64,000 nt of DNA. Origin: Eledone cirrhosa. Taxonomy: Eukaryota. Position 1 is the stretch's first letter. Each line of letters starts with the position of its first letter. The notes under the pieces were generated by a model. That model saw only the letters and a program-made list of their open reading frames with translations, was not told the DNA's origin and ran no database searches. The stretch is from the NCBI GenBank assembly GCA_964016885.1, contig OZ024740.1:155248001-155312000 (forward strand), in the 5' to 3' direction. This document shows positions 1,164-48,310 of the stretch, piece after piece. The position numbers were made by a program, and so were the translations under genes.

Positions 1164-1306
1164 CTGCAGATTGTAAAATAATGAAGAAACTGAAAGAATT
1201 TTTTTCTCCATGGGAAGCCAGGTAAGCACAAGTGAGACAAAGCAGGGCATTAATCCAGATAGTACCATAGAGCATACTTATAGGGATGTTGTCAGCAATA
1301 AATAGT
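1164..1306 (-). CDS. Exon G (last in window) of a multi-pass membrane protein gene, NEF1-like; 5' boundary uncertain
   Basis: Donor CAG|GTAAGT at 1164/1163. Stop-free frame LFIADNIPISMLYGTIWINALLCLTCAYLASHGEKNSFSFFIILQSA. U12-like branch TCCTTTAC at 1323-1316. Must start in phase 2 to join exon F. Confidence 0.7.
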
Positions 1307-1583
1307 ATATCATTGGTAAAGGATGATAATGTATGTTTCTGTGTTTCATGTGTGTTTCCCCTTCTCTACGGAGATTTCTTTTACTAATAAGTGTGTCAAC
1401 ACCCATGAGAATATAATGTAAAAAAACAGAGAGAGAGAAAGAAGAAATGAAGTACAAACACACACTCACATACATAAACACATGCACATGTGTGTGTGTG
1501 TATATATATATATATATGTTCAGATCTAGCTGTCAAAACAGCCGAAGCTCAGCTGTTGGGGTCCTGAATCTTTATTTATTTAT

Positions 1584-2084
1584 ATCATCATCATCATCAT
1601 CACCGTTTTACGTCCGTTCTTCCACGCTAGCATGGGTTAGACGGGTTGTCCTGTTGTGGGCAGTGTCTGGTCGGCTGACCATGCCTTGCTCATACAGGAA
1701 CTGATTTGGCTTGATTTCTACAGCTGGATGCCCTTCCTAACACCAACCTCATTTACAGTGAGTGCTGGGTGCTTTTTCGTGGCGCCTACACGTCCACTTT
1801 ACAGTGTGGGCTGGGTGCTTTTTTGCCGTGGCACCTCCACGACCACCTTGCAGTGGGGGGTGTGGGGGCATATTGTCTATATGCTTCAGCTTGTACCCAT
1901 GGGAGGTCGGGTACTCTGTATTACTGCGTGACGCCAGAGGTCACGGTCATGTGTCATTGTCTTTGAGAGGTGTAATTGGGTAAGGTCGGCTTTTATCACC
2001 TCATCCCAGGTCATCTTGGGTCTTCCCACTCCGCGGTTTCCATCGACTTCTAGTGCTCTGCACCTTTTTATGCAGCTGTCATCC

Positions 2085-2089
<5 letters not shown>
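1584..2089 (-). mobile_element. RTE-clade LINE family A, 5'-truncated 3' end
   Basis: C-terminal ORF GRPKMTWDEVIKADL, near-identical to 33185-33680. (GAT)n tail, ends in (TA)n. Confidence 0.95.
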
Positions 2090-2116
<27 letters not shown>

Positions 2117-2121
<5 letters not shown>

Positions 2122-2775
2122 TATGAGCACTCGATGCTCTTACAGAGCAGAGTATAATATCACATAAGAAACGGAGAATCAGTGGTGCGACGAATAAAAT
2201 TTATTAGAGATATTACAATCATTTCTCTGGCGACCAGCTCGAGGCACGATCGATGCAATGATAAAACCTGACTCTGAAATCGCAAGATCCTCAATATGTC
2301 TCGATTCTACGAAGCAGAGTTTCCAAATGTCCAGTTACATCCACTGCCTTCACTGTGCAGCTTAGATCCTGTTGTTTTCATTCTATGAGTGGTCAAGAAT
2401 TGTACACGTTATCGGTATTTTTGGCCACTCACAACCGATATAAGAAACAACTTTGATTGACAGGTGGCAATTGAAAGGAACCAAATATACGACGGTCGTG
2501 AGTGGCCAAAAATACTGATGACGTGCTCAATTCTTGACCACTCATAGAATGAAAACAACAGGATCTAAGCTGCAGAGTGAAGGCAGTGGATGTAACTGGA
2601 CATTTGGAAACTCTGCTTCGTAGAATCGAGACATATCTGAGGATCTTGCGATTTCAGAGTCAGGTTTTATCATTGCATCGATCGTGCCTCGAGCTGGTCG
2701 CCAGAGAAACGATTGTAATATGTCTAATAAATCTTATTCGTCGCACCACTGATTCTCCGTTTCTTATGCGATATA
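2117..2775. mobile_element. Foldback Penelope-like pLTR remnant, arms about 2158-2437 and 2492-2773, in (TA)n
   Basis: About 280-bp inverted repeat around a loop of about 55 nt. Contains a hammerhead motif. Related sequence at about 38930-39030. Confidence 0.8.
2629..2725 (+). ncRNA. Type I hammerhead ribozyme with extended (62-nt) stem II
   Basis: Stem I AGACATAT/ATATGTCT (8 bp), core CTGAGGA 2637-2643, stem II base TCTTGCGA/TCGCCAGA, GAAA 2706-2709, short stem III CGATTG, cleavage triplet GTA. Confidence 0.75.
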
Positions 2776-2785
2776 TATATATATT

Positions 2786-3047
2786 CCTTTAAGTTTGATG
2801 GTTCACCACTGGATAGAGCTGGTCATTCCATATAGCCAACCATGATGTAATATTAGAAAAAGCACTCAATGTTATGCAACTCATTCATCTTTGACATTTA
2901 ATCTTGTTGGTGGTGCGAGAACGAAGTTAGTTATTATTAAGTAAAATGACAGGAGGCCAGCCTGATGAAATTCCTTCAAAGTGTTTGCTAAAATAAATCT
3001 TTGAAGGAATTTCACCAGTCCAGCCTCCTGTTATTTTACTCAATAAT
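2786..3047 (-). mobile_element. PLE pLTR remnant with short terminal inversion (family of 9478-9995 and 43975-44310)
   Basis: Shares CCACTGGATAGAnCTGGTCATTCC with the other copies. Hairpin 2933-3047, flanked by (TA)n. Confidence 0.7.
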
Positions 3048-3270
3048 ATATATATATATATCAAGCGTTAACCTAATATATCCCTTTCATATACTGTACC
3101 GATTGTGTTGTTATTTCTGTTTACCTTTTACATATATATATACTAGCATGGAAGATAGACGTTAAACGATGATGATGATATATATATATATACACATACA
3201 CACACATAAAGTTGTGGGTACAAAGAAAAGGAAAGGGCAATCAATACATAGTGTGGGTTGAGTATTTATA

Positions 3271-3780
3271 TTAACAGTTTGACTTAACTCCACACTCCCA
3301 GTTTACCTCTATGTTATATGTCTCCATCTCCTCTTCTTTACTGTCAAAGTAGGATTTCTCTCTACTTGCCGTAGGTTGTCTTAGCTTCCAGATTTTCCTT
3401 CTCCAGGCTGGCTTTTGTCTCTTAGTCCTTTTAGCACTTATTCTAAGGTCACTGACAGAATGTTGGGACATATGTACATTTTTCCCCTGGATGGGTTTTG
3501 GCATTAACAACTATTTGCTTGTCCTGTTTTCTGGGGAGAAACAGTTTGACACAGAACTACTGTTGACTTGGTTTCTACAGCTGGATGCCCTTCCTAATGC
3601 CAACTACATTTACAGTGTGTACTGGGTGCTTTTTGTCATGATACCTACATGACCACTTTACAGTATGTACTGAGTGCTTTTTACATGATACCTACACAAC
3701 CACTTTACAGTATGTATTGAGTGCTTTTTACATGATACCTACACAACCACTTTACAGTATGTACTAGGTGCTTTTTGTCA
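3271..3780 (-). mobile_element. Degenerate RTE fragments: endonuclease-linker piece (SDLRI...WRRKIWKL) and a 3' UTR with four ~41-bp tandem units
   Basis: ORF 3271..3510 resembles the RTE post-endonuclease region. 3570-3780 matches the RTE 3' UTR module. Confidence 0.65.
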
Positions 3781-3916
3781 AATATAAACAAAATAGTAAC
3801 AGAGAAATAGTTGTGCATAAAACAAAAAAAAAATTCATATAATTTTAATATGCTGACTGGTAATGACCATGGTGTTTATCATGATTAAAAAGGAGTTGGC
3901 TTAATTTAAAGGATAC

Positions 3917-3993
3917 TTAATTGCCCAGGGCACTCTGGATATCCAGAAACTGTGAAGCAATGAAAGACCTGCAAATCCTGCTAGGGAAAAACT
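3917..3993 (-). CDS. Exon F of the NEF1-like membrane protein gene (77 nt, phase 0 to 2)
   Basis: Acceptor TCTTTTTATAG. Translates SFSLAGFAGLSLLHSFWISRVPWAI. Donor GTATCCTTT (U12 consensus). Phase fits exon E. Confidence 0.8.
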
Positions 3994-6508: not shown

Positions 6509-6684
6509 CTTAAATCGAATGCTACTGAGAAAAACTCCAAAAGCAACATGTGCAGTAATGCCAGCTGGTAACCAAGGGAGATAATGTGACGTGAGCCCAT
6601 AGTGATTTAGGATTGGGTAACAAAGGAGTGTTGTAATCATACCACTTAGCCATCTGAGTCGAACCACCAGCTGGTAGGAAACTC
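6509..6684 (-). CDS. Exon E of the NEF1-like membrane protein gene (176 nt, phase 1 to 0)
   Basis: Acceptor TCTACTTTCACAG, donor AAG|GTAAAC. (G)VSYQLVVRLRWLSGMITTLLCYPILNHYGLTSHYLPWLPAGITAHVAFGVFLSSIRFK lies within ORF 6341..6739. Confidence 0.88.
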
Positions 6685-10726: not shown

Positions 10727-13019
10727 TGCTGAGGAAAGAAAGTTCAAGCATGTTCTACAACGCGATGACCAAAAACGTGAGGTGTTCAGGATTGCTAGGC
10801 AATGCGTCAAGGAAAACCGTGATATTGTCGGGGAGAAGTGTGTACTAAACGACGATGGCACACTTGCCATCACCGACGCTGATAAGAAGGTAGCTTGGAA
10901 GTGTCACTATGAAAGGCTACTAAATGAGGAGAATAAATGGGAGAAAGACAGTCTCCCCCATATCGACCCAATAGAGGGACCAGCAGTGTTAGTCGAGGGG
11001 AGTATAATAAGTAAGGCAATCAAGGATATGAAGACGGGTAAGGCAGCTGGGCCTTCGGAAATAGTTGCTGAGATGCTGAAGGCATCTGGCACGGTGGGAC
11101 ACACCATGGTCACCCGCATAGTTAACCAAGTCGTACAGAATGGGGTTGTTCCGAAGGACTGGCATAGCAGCATCATCGTTAACTGTTATAAGGGTAAAGG
11201 AGACGCCCTAGATAGGAGTAACTATAGAGGCATTAAATTAATCGACCAGGTCATGAAGGTCACGGAAAAAGTAATAGCGCAACTAATCAGAGAGAGAATT
11301 GACCTAGATGAAATGCAGTTCGGGTTTGTGTCAGGCAAAAGTACCACAGACGCTCTTTTCATAGTACGACAACTACAGGATAAGTACCTAGCTAAAGGTA
11401 AACCCCTCTACTTAGCTTTTGTCGACTTGGAGAAAGCCTTCGACAGAGTCCCCCACTCCATTATCTGGTGGGCTCTTAGAAAACTAGGCGTTGACGAATG
11501 GCTTGTGAGGGCTATACAAGCCATGTATAAAGAAACAGTCAGCAAGGTTAGAATTAACAACGAATATAGTGAAGAGTTTAGCGTAAAAGTTGGCGTCCAT
11601 CATGGCTCTGTTCTCAGCCCCCTACTATTTATTATTGCCCTTCAGGCTATAACAGAGGAGTTCAAGACAGGCTGCCCATGGGAACTCCTATACGCAGACG
11701 ACCTGACACTCATAGCGGAATCAATGGCCGAGCTAGAGAAGAAATTCCAAACATGGAAGCACGGCCTAGAGTCAAAAGGACTTAAAATTAACCTGGCTAA
11801 GACCAAAGTTCTAGTTTGTAGGAAAGAAAACAAGGCGGCGATCCCTTCTGGGAAATGGTCGTGCTCGGTGTGTAGGAAAGGCGTAGGTAGAAACTCCATT
11901 TTATGTCCTAAATGCAAAGTATGGGTGCATAAAAGATGTAGTGGGATCACAGGTAAGCTAACTAAGAACATAGATTTTACATGTGGCCGGTGTTCTGGTG
12001 CAATAAGTAGCAGCAAGTGCCCACAAAATACTAGCTCTTTCAATTGCGCAGAGGGTTCTATAGAAATAGTGGACAGCTTCCGTTACCTGGGCGATAAAAT
12101 CAGCAGTCGGGGAGGGTGCTCTGAAAGTACTGTAGCTAGAGTCAGAACTGGTTGGAAAAAGTTCAGAGAGCTTATACCACTATTAGCTGCTAAAGGGTTC
12201 TCCCTAAAAATGAAAGGCAGGTTGTACGATGCCTGCATACGAACAGCAATGCTGCATGGCAGTGAGACCTGGGCATTGTGTGCAGAGGATATACGCAGAC
12301 TAGAGAGGAACGAAGCTTGCATGCTCCGCTGGATGTGTAACAGTAATATACGTGAACGGCAAAGCATAAACGAAGGAAAAAATTAGAGATAAGAGGGATC
12401 AGATGTTGTTTACTCGAGAGAAGGCTACGTTGGTATGGACACGTGATGCGCATGAAAGTCGATAGCTGTATAACAAAGTGCAGGGCAATAAAGATAGACG
12501 GTAGTCACGGAATAGGCAGACCTAGAAAAACCTGGGACGAGCTGATAAACTCCGACATCACACACTTACACCTCTCCAAGACAATGTCACTGGACCGAGA
12601 CCTTTGGCGGTACTCTGTAACAGAGAAGACCCGCCTTACCTAAATATATAGTAAAACCTACTCCAGCCAGTAGGCATCTCTAACAAATACACCCCGTCCC
12701 ACCACCACCACCCCCACCCCATCCACACCACCCCGTTCTATGTAAAGTTATGTTGGTGCCGCGCCATCCAGGCCGAAACAAATGAGATCGTGTAGGTGTC
12801 ACGACAAAAAAACACACAGTCCACGCTGTAATGTGGCCGTGTAGGCAACACGGTAAAAACCTCCCAGACCCACACTGTAAATGTGGTTGGTGTTAGGAAG
12901 GGCATCCAACTGTAGAAAACCTGCCAGACAGTCCTATGCGAGCAAGACAATCACTCTTGCCTCAAGTGGGACTACCCCCGTCCAAACCCATGCAAGTGTG
13001 GAACACGGACGTTAAACGT

Positions 13020-13050
<31 letters not shown>
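10727..13050 (+). mobile_element. RTE family B LINE, 5'-truncated, RT plus PHD finger, frameshifted near 12372
   Basis: ORF 10782..12386 has QFGF, AFVDLEKAFDRV, GSVLSPLLF and YADD. A 4-bp deletion relative to the copy at 37861-37890 breaks the frame. (GAT)n tail. Confidence 0.97.
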
Positions 13051-13054
13051 ATAT

Positions 13055-14275
13055 AGAACTAGAGAATAAATTCCAAACCTGGGAGCAGGGACTAGAGAGA
13101 AAGGGCCTCAAAGTCAACATGACAAAGACTAAGGTCCTTGTAAGTAGATGAGAAAACAGAACCCAGATCCCCTCAGGGAAATGGCCTTGCTCAGTATGTA
13201 GGAAAGGTGTAGGTAGGAACTCCATTCTCTGCCCCAAATGCAAACAATGGGTACACAAGAGATGTAGCGGGATCTCAGGAAGCTTAATTAAGAATGTAGG
13301 ATTCACATGCAGCAGCTGTGCTGAAACAGCAAGCAAACAGCCACAGGAAACAAGTACCACCAATCTCTGGGAGGGCCCTGTAGAAACAGTAGACAGCTTC
13401 TGCTACCTAGGTGACCGAATTAGCAGCGGAGGTGGGTGCTCAGAAAGTACAATAACTAGGGTAAGAACGGGATGGAAGAAGTTTAGGGAACTACTACCAC
13501 TGCTAGCTGCAAAAGGCTTCTCCCTCAGAATGAAAGGCAGACTGTATGATGCGTGTATCCGAACAGCGATGTTGCATGGTAGTGAGACCTGGGCGCTGAA
13601 GGTGGAAGACTTACGTAGATTAGAGAGAAACGAAGCCTGCATGCTCCGATGGATGTGTAACAGTAATATACGTGAACGACAAAGCATAAAGGAATTGAGA
13701 GAGAGACTGAGCATAAGAGGAATCAAATGCTGCGTGCAGGAGAGGCGGTTACGCTGGTATGGACATGTGATGCGTATGAAGGATGACAGCTGCATAAAAA
13801 GGTGCAGAGCACTAGAAGTTGATGGAAACCGCGGAGTGGGGAGACCCAAGATGACTTGGGATGAGGTGATAAAAGCCGACCTTACCCAACTACACCTCTC
13901 AAAGTCAATGACACACGACCGTGACTTCTGGCGTCACGCAGTAATACAGGGTACCCGACCTCCCATGGGTACATGCTGAAGCATATAAACAATATGCCCC
14001 CACTCCTCCCCACCGCAAGGTGGTCGTGGAGGTGCCACGGCAAAAAAGCACCCAGCCCACACTGTAAAGTGGACGTGTAGGCGCCACGAAAAAGCACCCA
14101 GCACTCACTGTAAATGAGGTTGGTGTTAGGAAGGGCATCCAGCTGTAGAAATCAAGCCAGACCAGTTCCTGTATGAGCAAGGCATGGTCAGCCGACCAGA
14201 CACTGCACACAACAGGACAACCCGTCTAACCCATGCTAGCGTGGGAGAACGGACGTAAAACGGTGATGATGATGA

Positions 14276-14356: not shown

Positions 14357-16476
14357 TTCTACACACACTACCAGCCCACGTCTGCAGCTCAAAGGAAGTC
14401 TTGGAGCGACTACACCATCTGGCGCCCAACACCAGAAAGGACAACGGTTATGCCTTCAGTCTTGATGTGGTCGCCCTTTATACCTCCGTACCAGCATCCC
14501 CAGCTGTCGACCTGTTGACCGAACGAGTCCGAGCATCTAACTTACACTGCTTCGAACTCACACACACGGACATCCACCAACTCCTCTCCTTCGTTGTGGA
14601 TAATGCACTCTTCAATTTCCTCGGCCACACGTACAAACAAATCTCTGGGCTACCTATGGGCTCTAGTCTGTCCGGCATACTTGCGATCTCGTACATGGAC
14701 CACCTGGAACGCAAGGCACTCAATACCTGCCAACCCAACGCCGTCGCCTTCTACTCCAGATACGTTGATGATATCCTGATACTTACTTCTTCCCGGGAGA
14801 TGGCGAATGAAATTCACCAAATCTTCAACGATACTGACCAACACATCGATTTCACCATCGAACACCCAGGAGAAGACGGGTCACTCGCCCTCCTCGACTT
14901 CCGTATCAACATCTCGGAAGAAGGAGACATAAACACCACTTTCTACCGCAAAGCAGCGTGCAAGGACTTATTTGTGCATTATAACTCAGCCCTCCCCAAC
15001 AACGCTAAGAGAGGCTATGTCCTAAATGAACTGACACGGATCACTAACAGATGCAGCGACCCGATGGGTGGTCTCACCCATACCACGCAATTCCGTAATC
15101 TACTCAGATCTAATGGTTATCCCAAGCGACTGATTAACGGAATTAGAGACCCCAGACCCAGTAGACTGACACCCACTAGAAAACTTAATATTAGCAGGTG
15201 CTTCTTTAAAATCCCCCACCTGAGTGAATATACCATGAACGCCATCCGCAGGGCCATACGGACGGAGGGACTTGACATACATTTGGCCCACACAGGACCT
15301 TCGCTGCGAAGATGCCTCTCCAACAAACCCTACGAGGCAGATGGGACGTGTTCCCTCAGCAACTGCCCGATACGGGGGGCAGATTGCCTACGCACCTATG
15401 TCGTATATAAGATTCAATGCGATAAATGTAACAAGTTTTACATAAGTAGCACCATCCGACCCCTACATGTTCGTATCAAGGAACATATCAACACCAACGC
15501 ATCTTCCTTCCGTAAACATATCCTTAAATGCGGAAACCCACAGGGTAGACCCTTGGTCACAGTCCTAACGACTGAACGCAGCATCGGATCCTTAAGGATA
15601 AAGGAAGCACTTGTTATTAAGAACCTCAGACCCCCACTTAACAACCGGGCTGAGAGAAATGAGCTGACATGGCTAACTTAACCATAATGACCATTCACAG
15701 CCTACGGCCTGCTATCTTCACACACACGCACGTATATGCATACCCATACGCATGCACACACACTTCTATATTTTACACGCACACATGTTTTTACAACCTA
15801 CCACCTTTCACACCCTTTGATTTCCAGCTTCTACAGCCCACTATCTTTCACACACAAACGCACTCACACATATACACACACAGTTACACACACACATGTA
15901 TACCCATACGCTTACACACACACACATCTATATTTATACACGCACACATATTTTACAACCTACCACCTTTCACACCCTTTGATTTCCAACTTCTACAGCC
16001 CACTATCTTTCACACACACACACACTCACACATATACACACTTACACTTATACACACACAGTCACACACACATATATATTTACATACACATATCTTACGG
16101 CTTTCACACGCTAACGCACCCTCTTGATTTAACCCATTTGGTCAGTAGCTTTTGCCACAGCTTATCACGCGCACGCACATTCTTTCCTTCGTTTAAATTT
16201 TAAATATTTTTCTCCCCATAACGGCATTCCTGTCTTAACGACATCACCACTTTCTCCGCTTGGCCTGTTTTCCCCCCTTTTGGAACTTTTCCCCCGTTGA
16301 TGGGCGTGAGCCCGAAATATTGGGATTAAATCTCTACTACGGTAACCCTTCTACCTTTGTTTTGTTTTCATCTTTGTCTCTCTCAACTTTCACTTTCACC
16401 TGTTTTTCCTATCTATATTTCACTTCCTACCTCGAGATTTCCCTTTGCATTGTTGTGGCTTTCTTAAATACGTATG

Positions 16477-21095: not shown

Positions 21096-21174
21096 CTAAA
21101 TGCTCTGTGAACTGCCTGATTGGGAGAAGGGTCGCCAGGAATACACTGGCACAGCTAACAAACACCATTTCAAT
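21096..21174 (-). CDS. Exon D of the NEF1-like membrane protein gene (79 nt, phase 0 to 1)
   Basis: Acceptor TGTCTATTTGATAG, donor TAG|GTAAGT. IEMVFVSCASVFLATLLPIRQFTEHL(G). Phases match both neighbours. Confidence 0.88.
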
Positions 21175-21798: not shown

Positions 21799-21991
21799 CA
21801 GGAAACTTGCTGAGAAAATTGTGAGATCCTTTGACAAGATTGAAGCGGAGAAGAATAAGAATATTGGTGAAAATATGTATAAGAATGTCATGAGCCCTGT
21901 TAATAAAGGATCTATTATGTTGTCTTCTTGTCCCATGTGCATCCGGAAAGATGAGGCTGTAGGAACTAAAAATAACTGGAGAAGACCAAAC
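21799..21991 (-). CDS. Exon C of the NEF1-like membrane protein gene (193 nt, phase 2 to 0)
   Basis: Acceptor TTTCTTTTCCAG, donor CTG|GTATGT. FGLLQLFLVPTASSFRMHMGQEDNIIDPLLTGLMTFLYIFSPIFLFFSASILSKDLTIFSASFL. Confidence 0.9.
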
Positions 21992-40646: not shown

Positions 40647-40762
40647 CCAAAAGCTATGGTAAGATAAGGCAGCAGGCTTAGTTTTACTACAGACATCGTT
40701 GCCCATATCCATAATGCCACAGAGAGAGCAGGGTATGCAGTAAATAGCAGCTTTTCAATGGT
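40647..40762 (-). CDS. Exon B of the NEF1-like membrane protein gene (116 nt, phase 0 to 2)
   Basis: Acceptor TCTTTTTATTGCAG, donor TGG|GTAAGC. TIEKLLFTAYPALSVALWIWATMSVVKLSLLPYLTIAF(G). Not present in the ORF track. Confidence 0.9.
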
Positions 40763-48192: not shown

Positions 48193-48310
48193 CAAACAGA
48201 GTTCAAATTCTTCACATCGGAATGCAGAGAACTGTAATATAATCCAGCCACCAGTCAATAATATGAAGAAATTGGTAATGAAGATGAGAGCAACATTTAA
48301 CCAAGACAAC
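48193..48310 (-). CDS. Exon A (first identified) of the NEF1-like membrane protein gene (118 nt, phase 2 to 0)
   Basis: Acceptor CTTTGCTTTTGCAG, donor TTG|GTAAGC. LSWLNVALIFITNFFILLTGGWIILQFSAFRCEEFELCL. The GxWxxLQF...E..LF pattern is recalled from NEF1. Confidence 0.9.

Follow-up and report, generated by a model that had tools for sequence, protein, structure and literature searches.

The analysed window is a stretch of 64,000 nt from the genome of the octopod Eledone cirrhosa. A gene on its minus strand carries an intron that begins with GT and ends with AT, the coordinates of which are given with those of the surrounding exons and splice signals in Table 1. When the Octopus sinensis protein was searched by tblastn against the sequence region around the window, its residues 84–932 fell on 17 exons, all on the minus strand, and residues 1–83 had no match. 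Joined with the GT–AT junction, the 17 exons form an open frame of 849 codons, which aligns to the O. sinensis protein with 770 identities, 78 mismatches and 1 gap. Fifteen of the 16 introns of the host gene are GT–AG, the sole exception being the phase 2 intron at 3916–1307.

Table 1 Features of the host gene and its GT–AT intron in window coordinates
Feature	Position	Strand	Details
Exon G	1164..1306	-	143 nt; contig match with 0 differences
Exon F	3917..3993	-	77 nt; contig loose end, tblastn and chain; 3′ end ...GCAATTAA
Exon E	6509..6684	-	176 nt; tblastn; depth fits 39 nt of exon E in the same contig
Upstream coding exon	21096..21174	-	tblastn, open chain
Upstream coding exon	21799..21991	-	tblastn, open chain
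Upstream coding exon	40647..40762	-	tblastn, open chain
Upstream coding exon	48193..48310	-	tblastn, open chain
Intron	1307..3916	-	2,610 nt, phase 2, GT...AT, U12-type signals; contig junction, phase and termini
U12-type 5′ splice site GTATCCTTT	3908..3916	-	best of the gene's 16 donors in predicted U11 and U6atac pairing
Predicted U12 branch site ATCCTTTAC	1316..1324	-	1 mismatch to TCCTTRAC; branch A predicted at 1317
3′ terminal AT	1307..1308	-	10 nt past predicted branch A; in frame; used in contig
AC	1305..1306	-	12 nt past branch A; out of frame; not the contig's site
AAG	1277..1279	-	40 nt past branch A; in frame, would drop 10 codons; unused in contig

The 849-codon frame encodes about 15 strongly hydrophobic segments by computation, and no Pfam family was found for 6 exons or for 3 full proteins. 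Judged by its sequence, the host gene (1164–48310 on the minus strand, plus flanks) is predicted to encode an uncharacterised membrane protein of the multi-pass type, which is a relative of plant NEF1. Relatives of the host protein were found in a wide range of marine invertebrates (molluscs, a brachiopod, annelids, a nemertean, echinoderms and cnidarians), and the weaker plant relatives are No exine formation 1 proteins (P0067, E 2.1e-11). The 30 proteins whose names were looked up included no vertebrate or insect sequence. The top Atlas hit for the host protein (0.87) serves as a lead only, and among the 8 papers found for the Arabidopsis NEF1 locus tag, no title concerned minor introns.

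The GT–AT junction and its U12-type signals

Our search of sequencing runs returned 8 public runs, with none on record as RNA. Run X4, the type of which is not on record, was judged RNA-like from its spliced contig. Half of the sampled 31-mers of 1160–1400 were present in X4, approximately the share expected from exon G alone. Over 1140–1430, X4 yielded a single contig of 2,171 nt at a depth of 15.4, which matches 1164–1306 with 0 differences. Its loose end behind 1306 is identical to positions 3917–3946 of exon F (30/30 letters), and the loose end on its other side begins the following exon, which lies about 33 kb downstream. On the 5′ side of the contig there are 116 nt, a length that would suit exon F (77 nt) together with 39 nt of exon E and agrees with the bin depth of 3.19. 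The intron thus removed starts with GTATCCTTT from 3916 and ends with ...ATCCTTTACCAATGATAT at 1307 on the minus strand. The cut cannot be shifted, since the last base of exon F is A where the intron has T, and the intron's opening base is G where the exon has A. We conclude that the spliced product, in one contig of one run, confirms the termini as GT and AT and the junction as 3917/1306, with the caveat that contigs drop rare isoforms. A first-pass annotation of the sequence had proposed splicing after the AT at 1308–1307 to give PWAIK-LFIADNIP, and exactly this junction is present in the X4 contig; skipping of exon F, which it had also considered, finds no place there, exon F being included. 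Of the remaining runs, the RAD run X6 had almost no cover of the site, and an X5 piece at 1330–1368 with 6 differences in 39 nt was taken to be a match by chance or to a repeat.

The donor GTATCCTTT at 3916 matches the U12 5′ splice-site consensus RTATCCTTT (PMC8199999), as the first-pass annotation had held when it called this a perfect U12 5′ site, and all of its coordinates check out. Predicted pairing with U11 (−6.1 kcal/mol) and with U6atac (−6.3 kcal/mol) is the best of the 16 donors of the gene, by small margins over the next best (−5.7 and −5.6 kcal/mol, respectively). The string GTATCCTT occurs 4 times among 448,001 positions (224 kb, both strands), which is 1.5e-4 of GT dinucleotides. 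Near the 3′ end, TCCTTTAC at 1323–1316 on the minus strand compares with a TCCTTAAC-like consensus. It has a single mismatch to TCCTTRAC, compared with 2–4 near the ends of the other 15 introns of the host gene, and is the only one-mismatch motif found within the intron; TCCTT[AGT]AC has a regional background frequency of 5.8e-5 per site. The energy of the predicted U12 duplex (−6.5) does not single out the intron, since 5 of the 15 other introns score stronger. There is no polypyrimidine tract at the intron's 3′ end: the pyrimidine share is the lowest of the 16 introns both at −12 to −3 (0.5, others 0.7–1.0) and at −60 to −21 (0.28, others 0.40–0.75). The genome contains U11 (2 copies), U12 (1 copy), U4atac (1 copy) and U6atac above the Rfam cut-offs. 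U6atac-like matches over the cut-off number 15 genome-wide, and in the best copies the 5′ splice-site box has the sequence AAAAAAGGAGA.

From these splice signals and the presence of the snRNAs, the minor (U12-dependent) spliceosome likely removes the intron. Termini alone do not decide the spliceosome class, since a conserved U2-type GT–AT intron has been reported in DGCR2 (PMC1557818). That precedent, together with a GT start acceptable to U1 and a branch–U12 duplex of no distinctive energy, is what speaks for splicing by the major (U2) spliceosome or a hybrid route. However, GTATCCTTT fits U12 perfectly and U1 poorly, the polypyrimidine tract that is present in the reported U2-type GT–AT cases (PMC1557818) is absent here, the branch-like motif sits at minor-intron distance, and donor read-through with YP[FL] recurs in the O. 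bimaculoides, Mytilus and Tegillarca models discussed below. We therefore consider a major-spliceosome or hybrid route very unlikely, although it is the rival that fares best.

Repeats surround these features. Within the intron, an inverted repeat at 2157–2774 (about 280 nt per arm, arms 96–97% complementary, MITE-like) would form a long hairpin in the pre-mRNA, which is a possible ADAR substrate. The intron after exon G holds a tandem array at 1–1085, built of approximately 38-nt units with (GTT)n cores, where an acceptor-like TTTCACAG in each unit precedes a donor-like sequence, either CAGGTCAG or CAGGTGAG. This array is skipped by the X4 contig. LINE-type reverse-transcriptase fragments lie in an upstream intron at 10740–13600 and 14400–15060, and several of the chance hits to RTATCCTT and TCCTTTAC trace back to their repeats.

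The intron end in protein models of other molluscs

Orthologues were compared as protein models, in which a junctional Lys (AAA or AAG) cannot tell a GT from an AT donor. Two metagenome scans for orthologous DNA gave 60 and 413 pattern matches, with no relative among them. In a decapod cluster of 15 members, 10 read PWSIK-LFLAD, 4 leave the site uncovered and 1, from Acanthosepion pharaonis, reads through the acceptor (FLNLSI-LFLAD), as does P0085; F-L-N in A. pharaonis is the expected encoding of TTCCTTAAC. An Octopus cluster of 6 members has K-L at the junction in O. sinensis and in one O. bimaculoides model, the reading of RefSeq for both species, with the site absent in 1 member, and K-L is likewise found in P0002. 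Other O. bimaculoides models read through the donor (KYPLT) or the acceptor (SSFTSDIL), and two residues are inserted at the junction in O. vulgaris (N-D-I-L) and Argonauta (K-Y-I-L). In a phase 2 intron that is read through, the two terminal intron bases and the first exon base form one codon, so that an intron ending in AT yields Ile, one ending in AG Arg and one ending in AC Thr. Ile (ATH) precedes Leu in all four species that expose the intron end, namely O. bimaculoides, O. vulgaris, Argonauta and A. pharaonis. The regional background is 8.7% for Ile, 0.5% for a branch-like tripeptide and 0.04% for both, where the tripeptide set was chosen after the data were seen and the species compared are related. 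These models suggest that the AT end is probably coleoid-wide, and old rather than a recent mutation.

A wrong assembly at 1308–1307, or a recent AG-to-AT or AC-to-AT change in the sequenced animal, would also place an AT at the intron end, and the first-pass annotation had listed both possibilities. We regard the chance of either as slim. All 22 sampled 31-mers of 1160–1400 were present in the short-read DNA runs X1–X3, and we estimate it to be about 98% likely that at least one of them spans the dinucleotide, although the three runs represent one sample that may be the assembly's own source. The case against an assembly error consists of this word share together with the orthologue models, in four of which, all coleoid, Ile is kept at the same place.

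An AG located 6 nt upstream of the intron end, and taken up by automated annotation, would be consistent with the insertions in O. vulgaris and Argonauta and with the Ser that replaces Asn in O. bimaculoides. Such an AG in Octopus and Argonauta would be in frame and would lie 4 nt from the branch. Use of another acceptor for the main product, be it this AG or the AAG at 1277 that the first-pass annotation had considered, draws on the AAG being in frame, on the two public models with inserted residues (NDIL, KYIL) and on rare isoforms being invisible in contigs; it is scarcely credible in E. cirrhosa, where the only contig has no loose end at 1277 and positions 1314–1313 read AA rather than AG. 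The same low standing applies to an artefactual junction: template switching was rejected because the junction has no repeated base, a retrocopy because 1150–1450 has one genomic match only, and RNA editing because A-to-I changes cannot make a G or C out of a T and exon G is matched by the contig with 0 differences.

Further from the coleoids, the Mytilus and Tegillarca models read PWKLA-YPF and PWRIT-YPF at the junction (background 0.017%), readings that an RTATCCTT donor in this position could produce; against this, YPF is likewise present there in a full-length model from Mactra, and the mature protein often has Tyr-x-Phe. A profile search for further read-through open reading frames returned P0066 only. 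Models P0158, P0001, P0159, P0160, P0163, P0066, P0029 and P0020, from several molluscs, are broken, read through or carry insertions at the junction, a pattern that may be a sign of a mis-annotated minor intron.

Choice of the 3′ end and known GT–AT introns

Past A1317, AT dinucleotides end at 5, 8, 10 and 15 nt and an AC at 12 nt. The AT at 10 nt is the only one of these in frame, the others leading to stops within 28–36 codons. For the AC, the stop falls at codon 29 of exons F and G, which bears out the first-pass remark that it has the wrong phase. Going upstream, the closest AG ends above the branch, 32 nt before the end of the intron, and going downstream the first one lies at 1278–1277; the first-pass annotation had described the U12-like branch at 1323–1316 as lacking a nearby AG. 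For U12-type introns, the branch-to-3′-end distance has an optimum of 11–13 nt and a range of 10–20 nt (PMC3584512, PMC8199999), so that the 10 nt counted here from the predicted A1317 lies at the lower edge of the range, with the proviso that counting conventions may differ. GT–AC minor introns are described as disfavoured (PMC3584512) and GT–AT is reported as productive (PMC1557818). By distance alone the AC at 12 nt would be preferred, unlike in the contig, and compatibility of the first and last nucleotides is therefore probably also needed. Dietrich et al. (2005) reportedly found that introns with a 5′ G can splice to a 3′ G or U but scarcely to A or C. The first-pass reading, which took U12 3′ sites to be set mostly by distance and rare termini to occur, is supported, with the refinement that distance is not a sufficient explanation.

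Taking the evidence together, we are highly confident that this is a real GT–AT intron, cut exactly between 3917 and 1306, that the minor spliceosome likely removes it and that its AT end is probably shared by octopods and cuttlefish. In the mechanism that we propose, U11 and then U6atac would pair with GTATCCTTT, and U12 would pair with ATCCTTTAC, bulging A1317; a polypyrimidine tract would be unnecessary. The 3′ end would be picked among A–N dinucleotides in a short window past the branch, and the last base would have to partner the first G of the intron, a role open to G or U and hardly to C. With no AG in reach and C hardly able to partner G, the AT at 10 nt would be used and the AC at 12 nt passed over. 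A slip to the AC (12 nt) or to one of the ATs at 8 and 15 nt would break the reading frame, with nonsense-mediated decay as the likely outcome. Choice of the 3′ end would then reflect a distance window and a filter on first and last nucleotides, with decay hiding out-of-frame slips. It is conceivable, though rather improbable, that selection has kept the AT since the octopod–decapod split so that a purposely weak acceptor for the minor spliceosome would throttle the NEF1-like gene. A T kept for long as the last base does not have to imply regulation, as only G or T seem to be tolerated there and few lineages have been sampled.

GT–AT minor introns, to which the octopod intron likely belongs, are a rare and already catalogued type. 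They account for 319 (0.433%) of conserved animal minor introns, compared with a single GT–AC intron (Larue and Roy 2023, PMC10639083, Table S1), and 4 human and 3 mouse U12-type cases have been catalogued (Sheth et al. 2006, PMC1557818, Tables 2–3); they have been grouped as G-type minor introns (PMC8280824). The GT–AT introns of DEADC1 and SLC24A6, which show human–mouse conservation (PMC1557818), resemble the octopod intron in their RTATCCTT donor, termini, cross-species conservation and mis-mapping by automated methods. The octopod intron differs from them in its host gene, its mollusc lineage, its one-mismatch branch site and the competing AC at 12 nt, and its conservation apparently spans a deeper split, that between octopods and decapods. 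The U2-type intron of DGCR2 shares the GT–AT termini, but introns of that class combine an optimal U2 donor with a polypyrimidine tract (PMC1557818), whereas the octopod intron has neither. Our search for literature on cephalopod minor introns returned PMC10639083 only. That survey includes GT–AT ends and O. sinensis among the species compared; the octopod intron is not named in the parts consulted, and its per-species tables may list the O. sinensis orthologue.

Existing knowledge of the minor spliceosome is unchanged by the octopod intron, which adds a transcript-supported invertebrate case of a subtype that makes up about 0.4% of minor introns. A GT–AT intron at this position would explain why public models are wrong, both those with insertions (O. 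vulgaris, Argonauta) and those that are split or read through (O. bimaculoides, A. pharaonis, Mytilus, Tegillarca). It would also provide a natural substrate in which AT, AC and, in some species, AG compete behind one branch site. By bypassing an AC at the optimal distance and, in Octopus and Argonauta, a probable in-frame AG, the site may serve as a natural invertebrate test of the first–last nucleotide rule.
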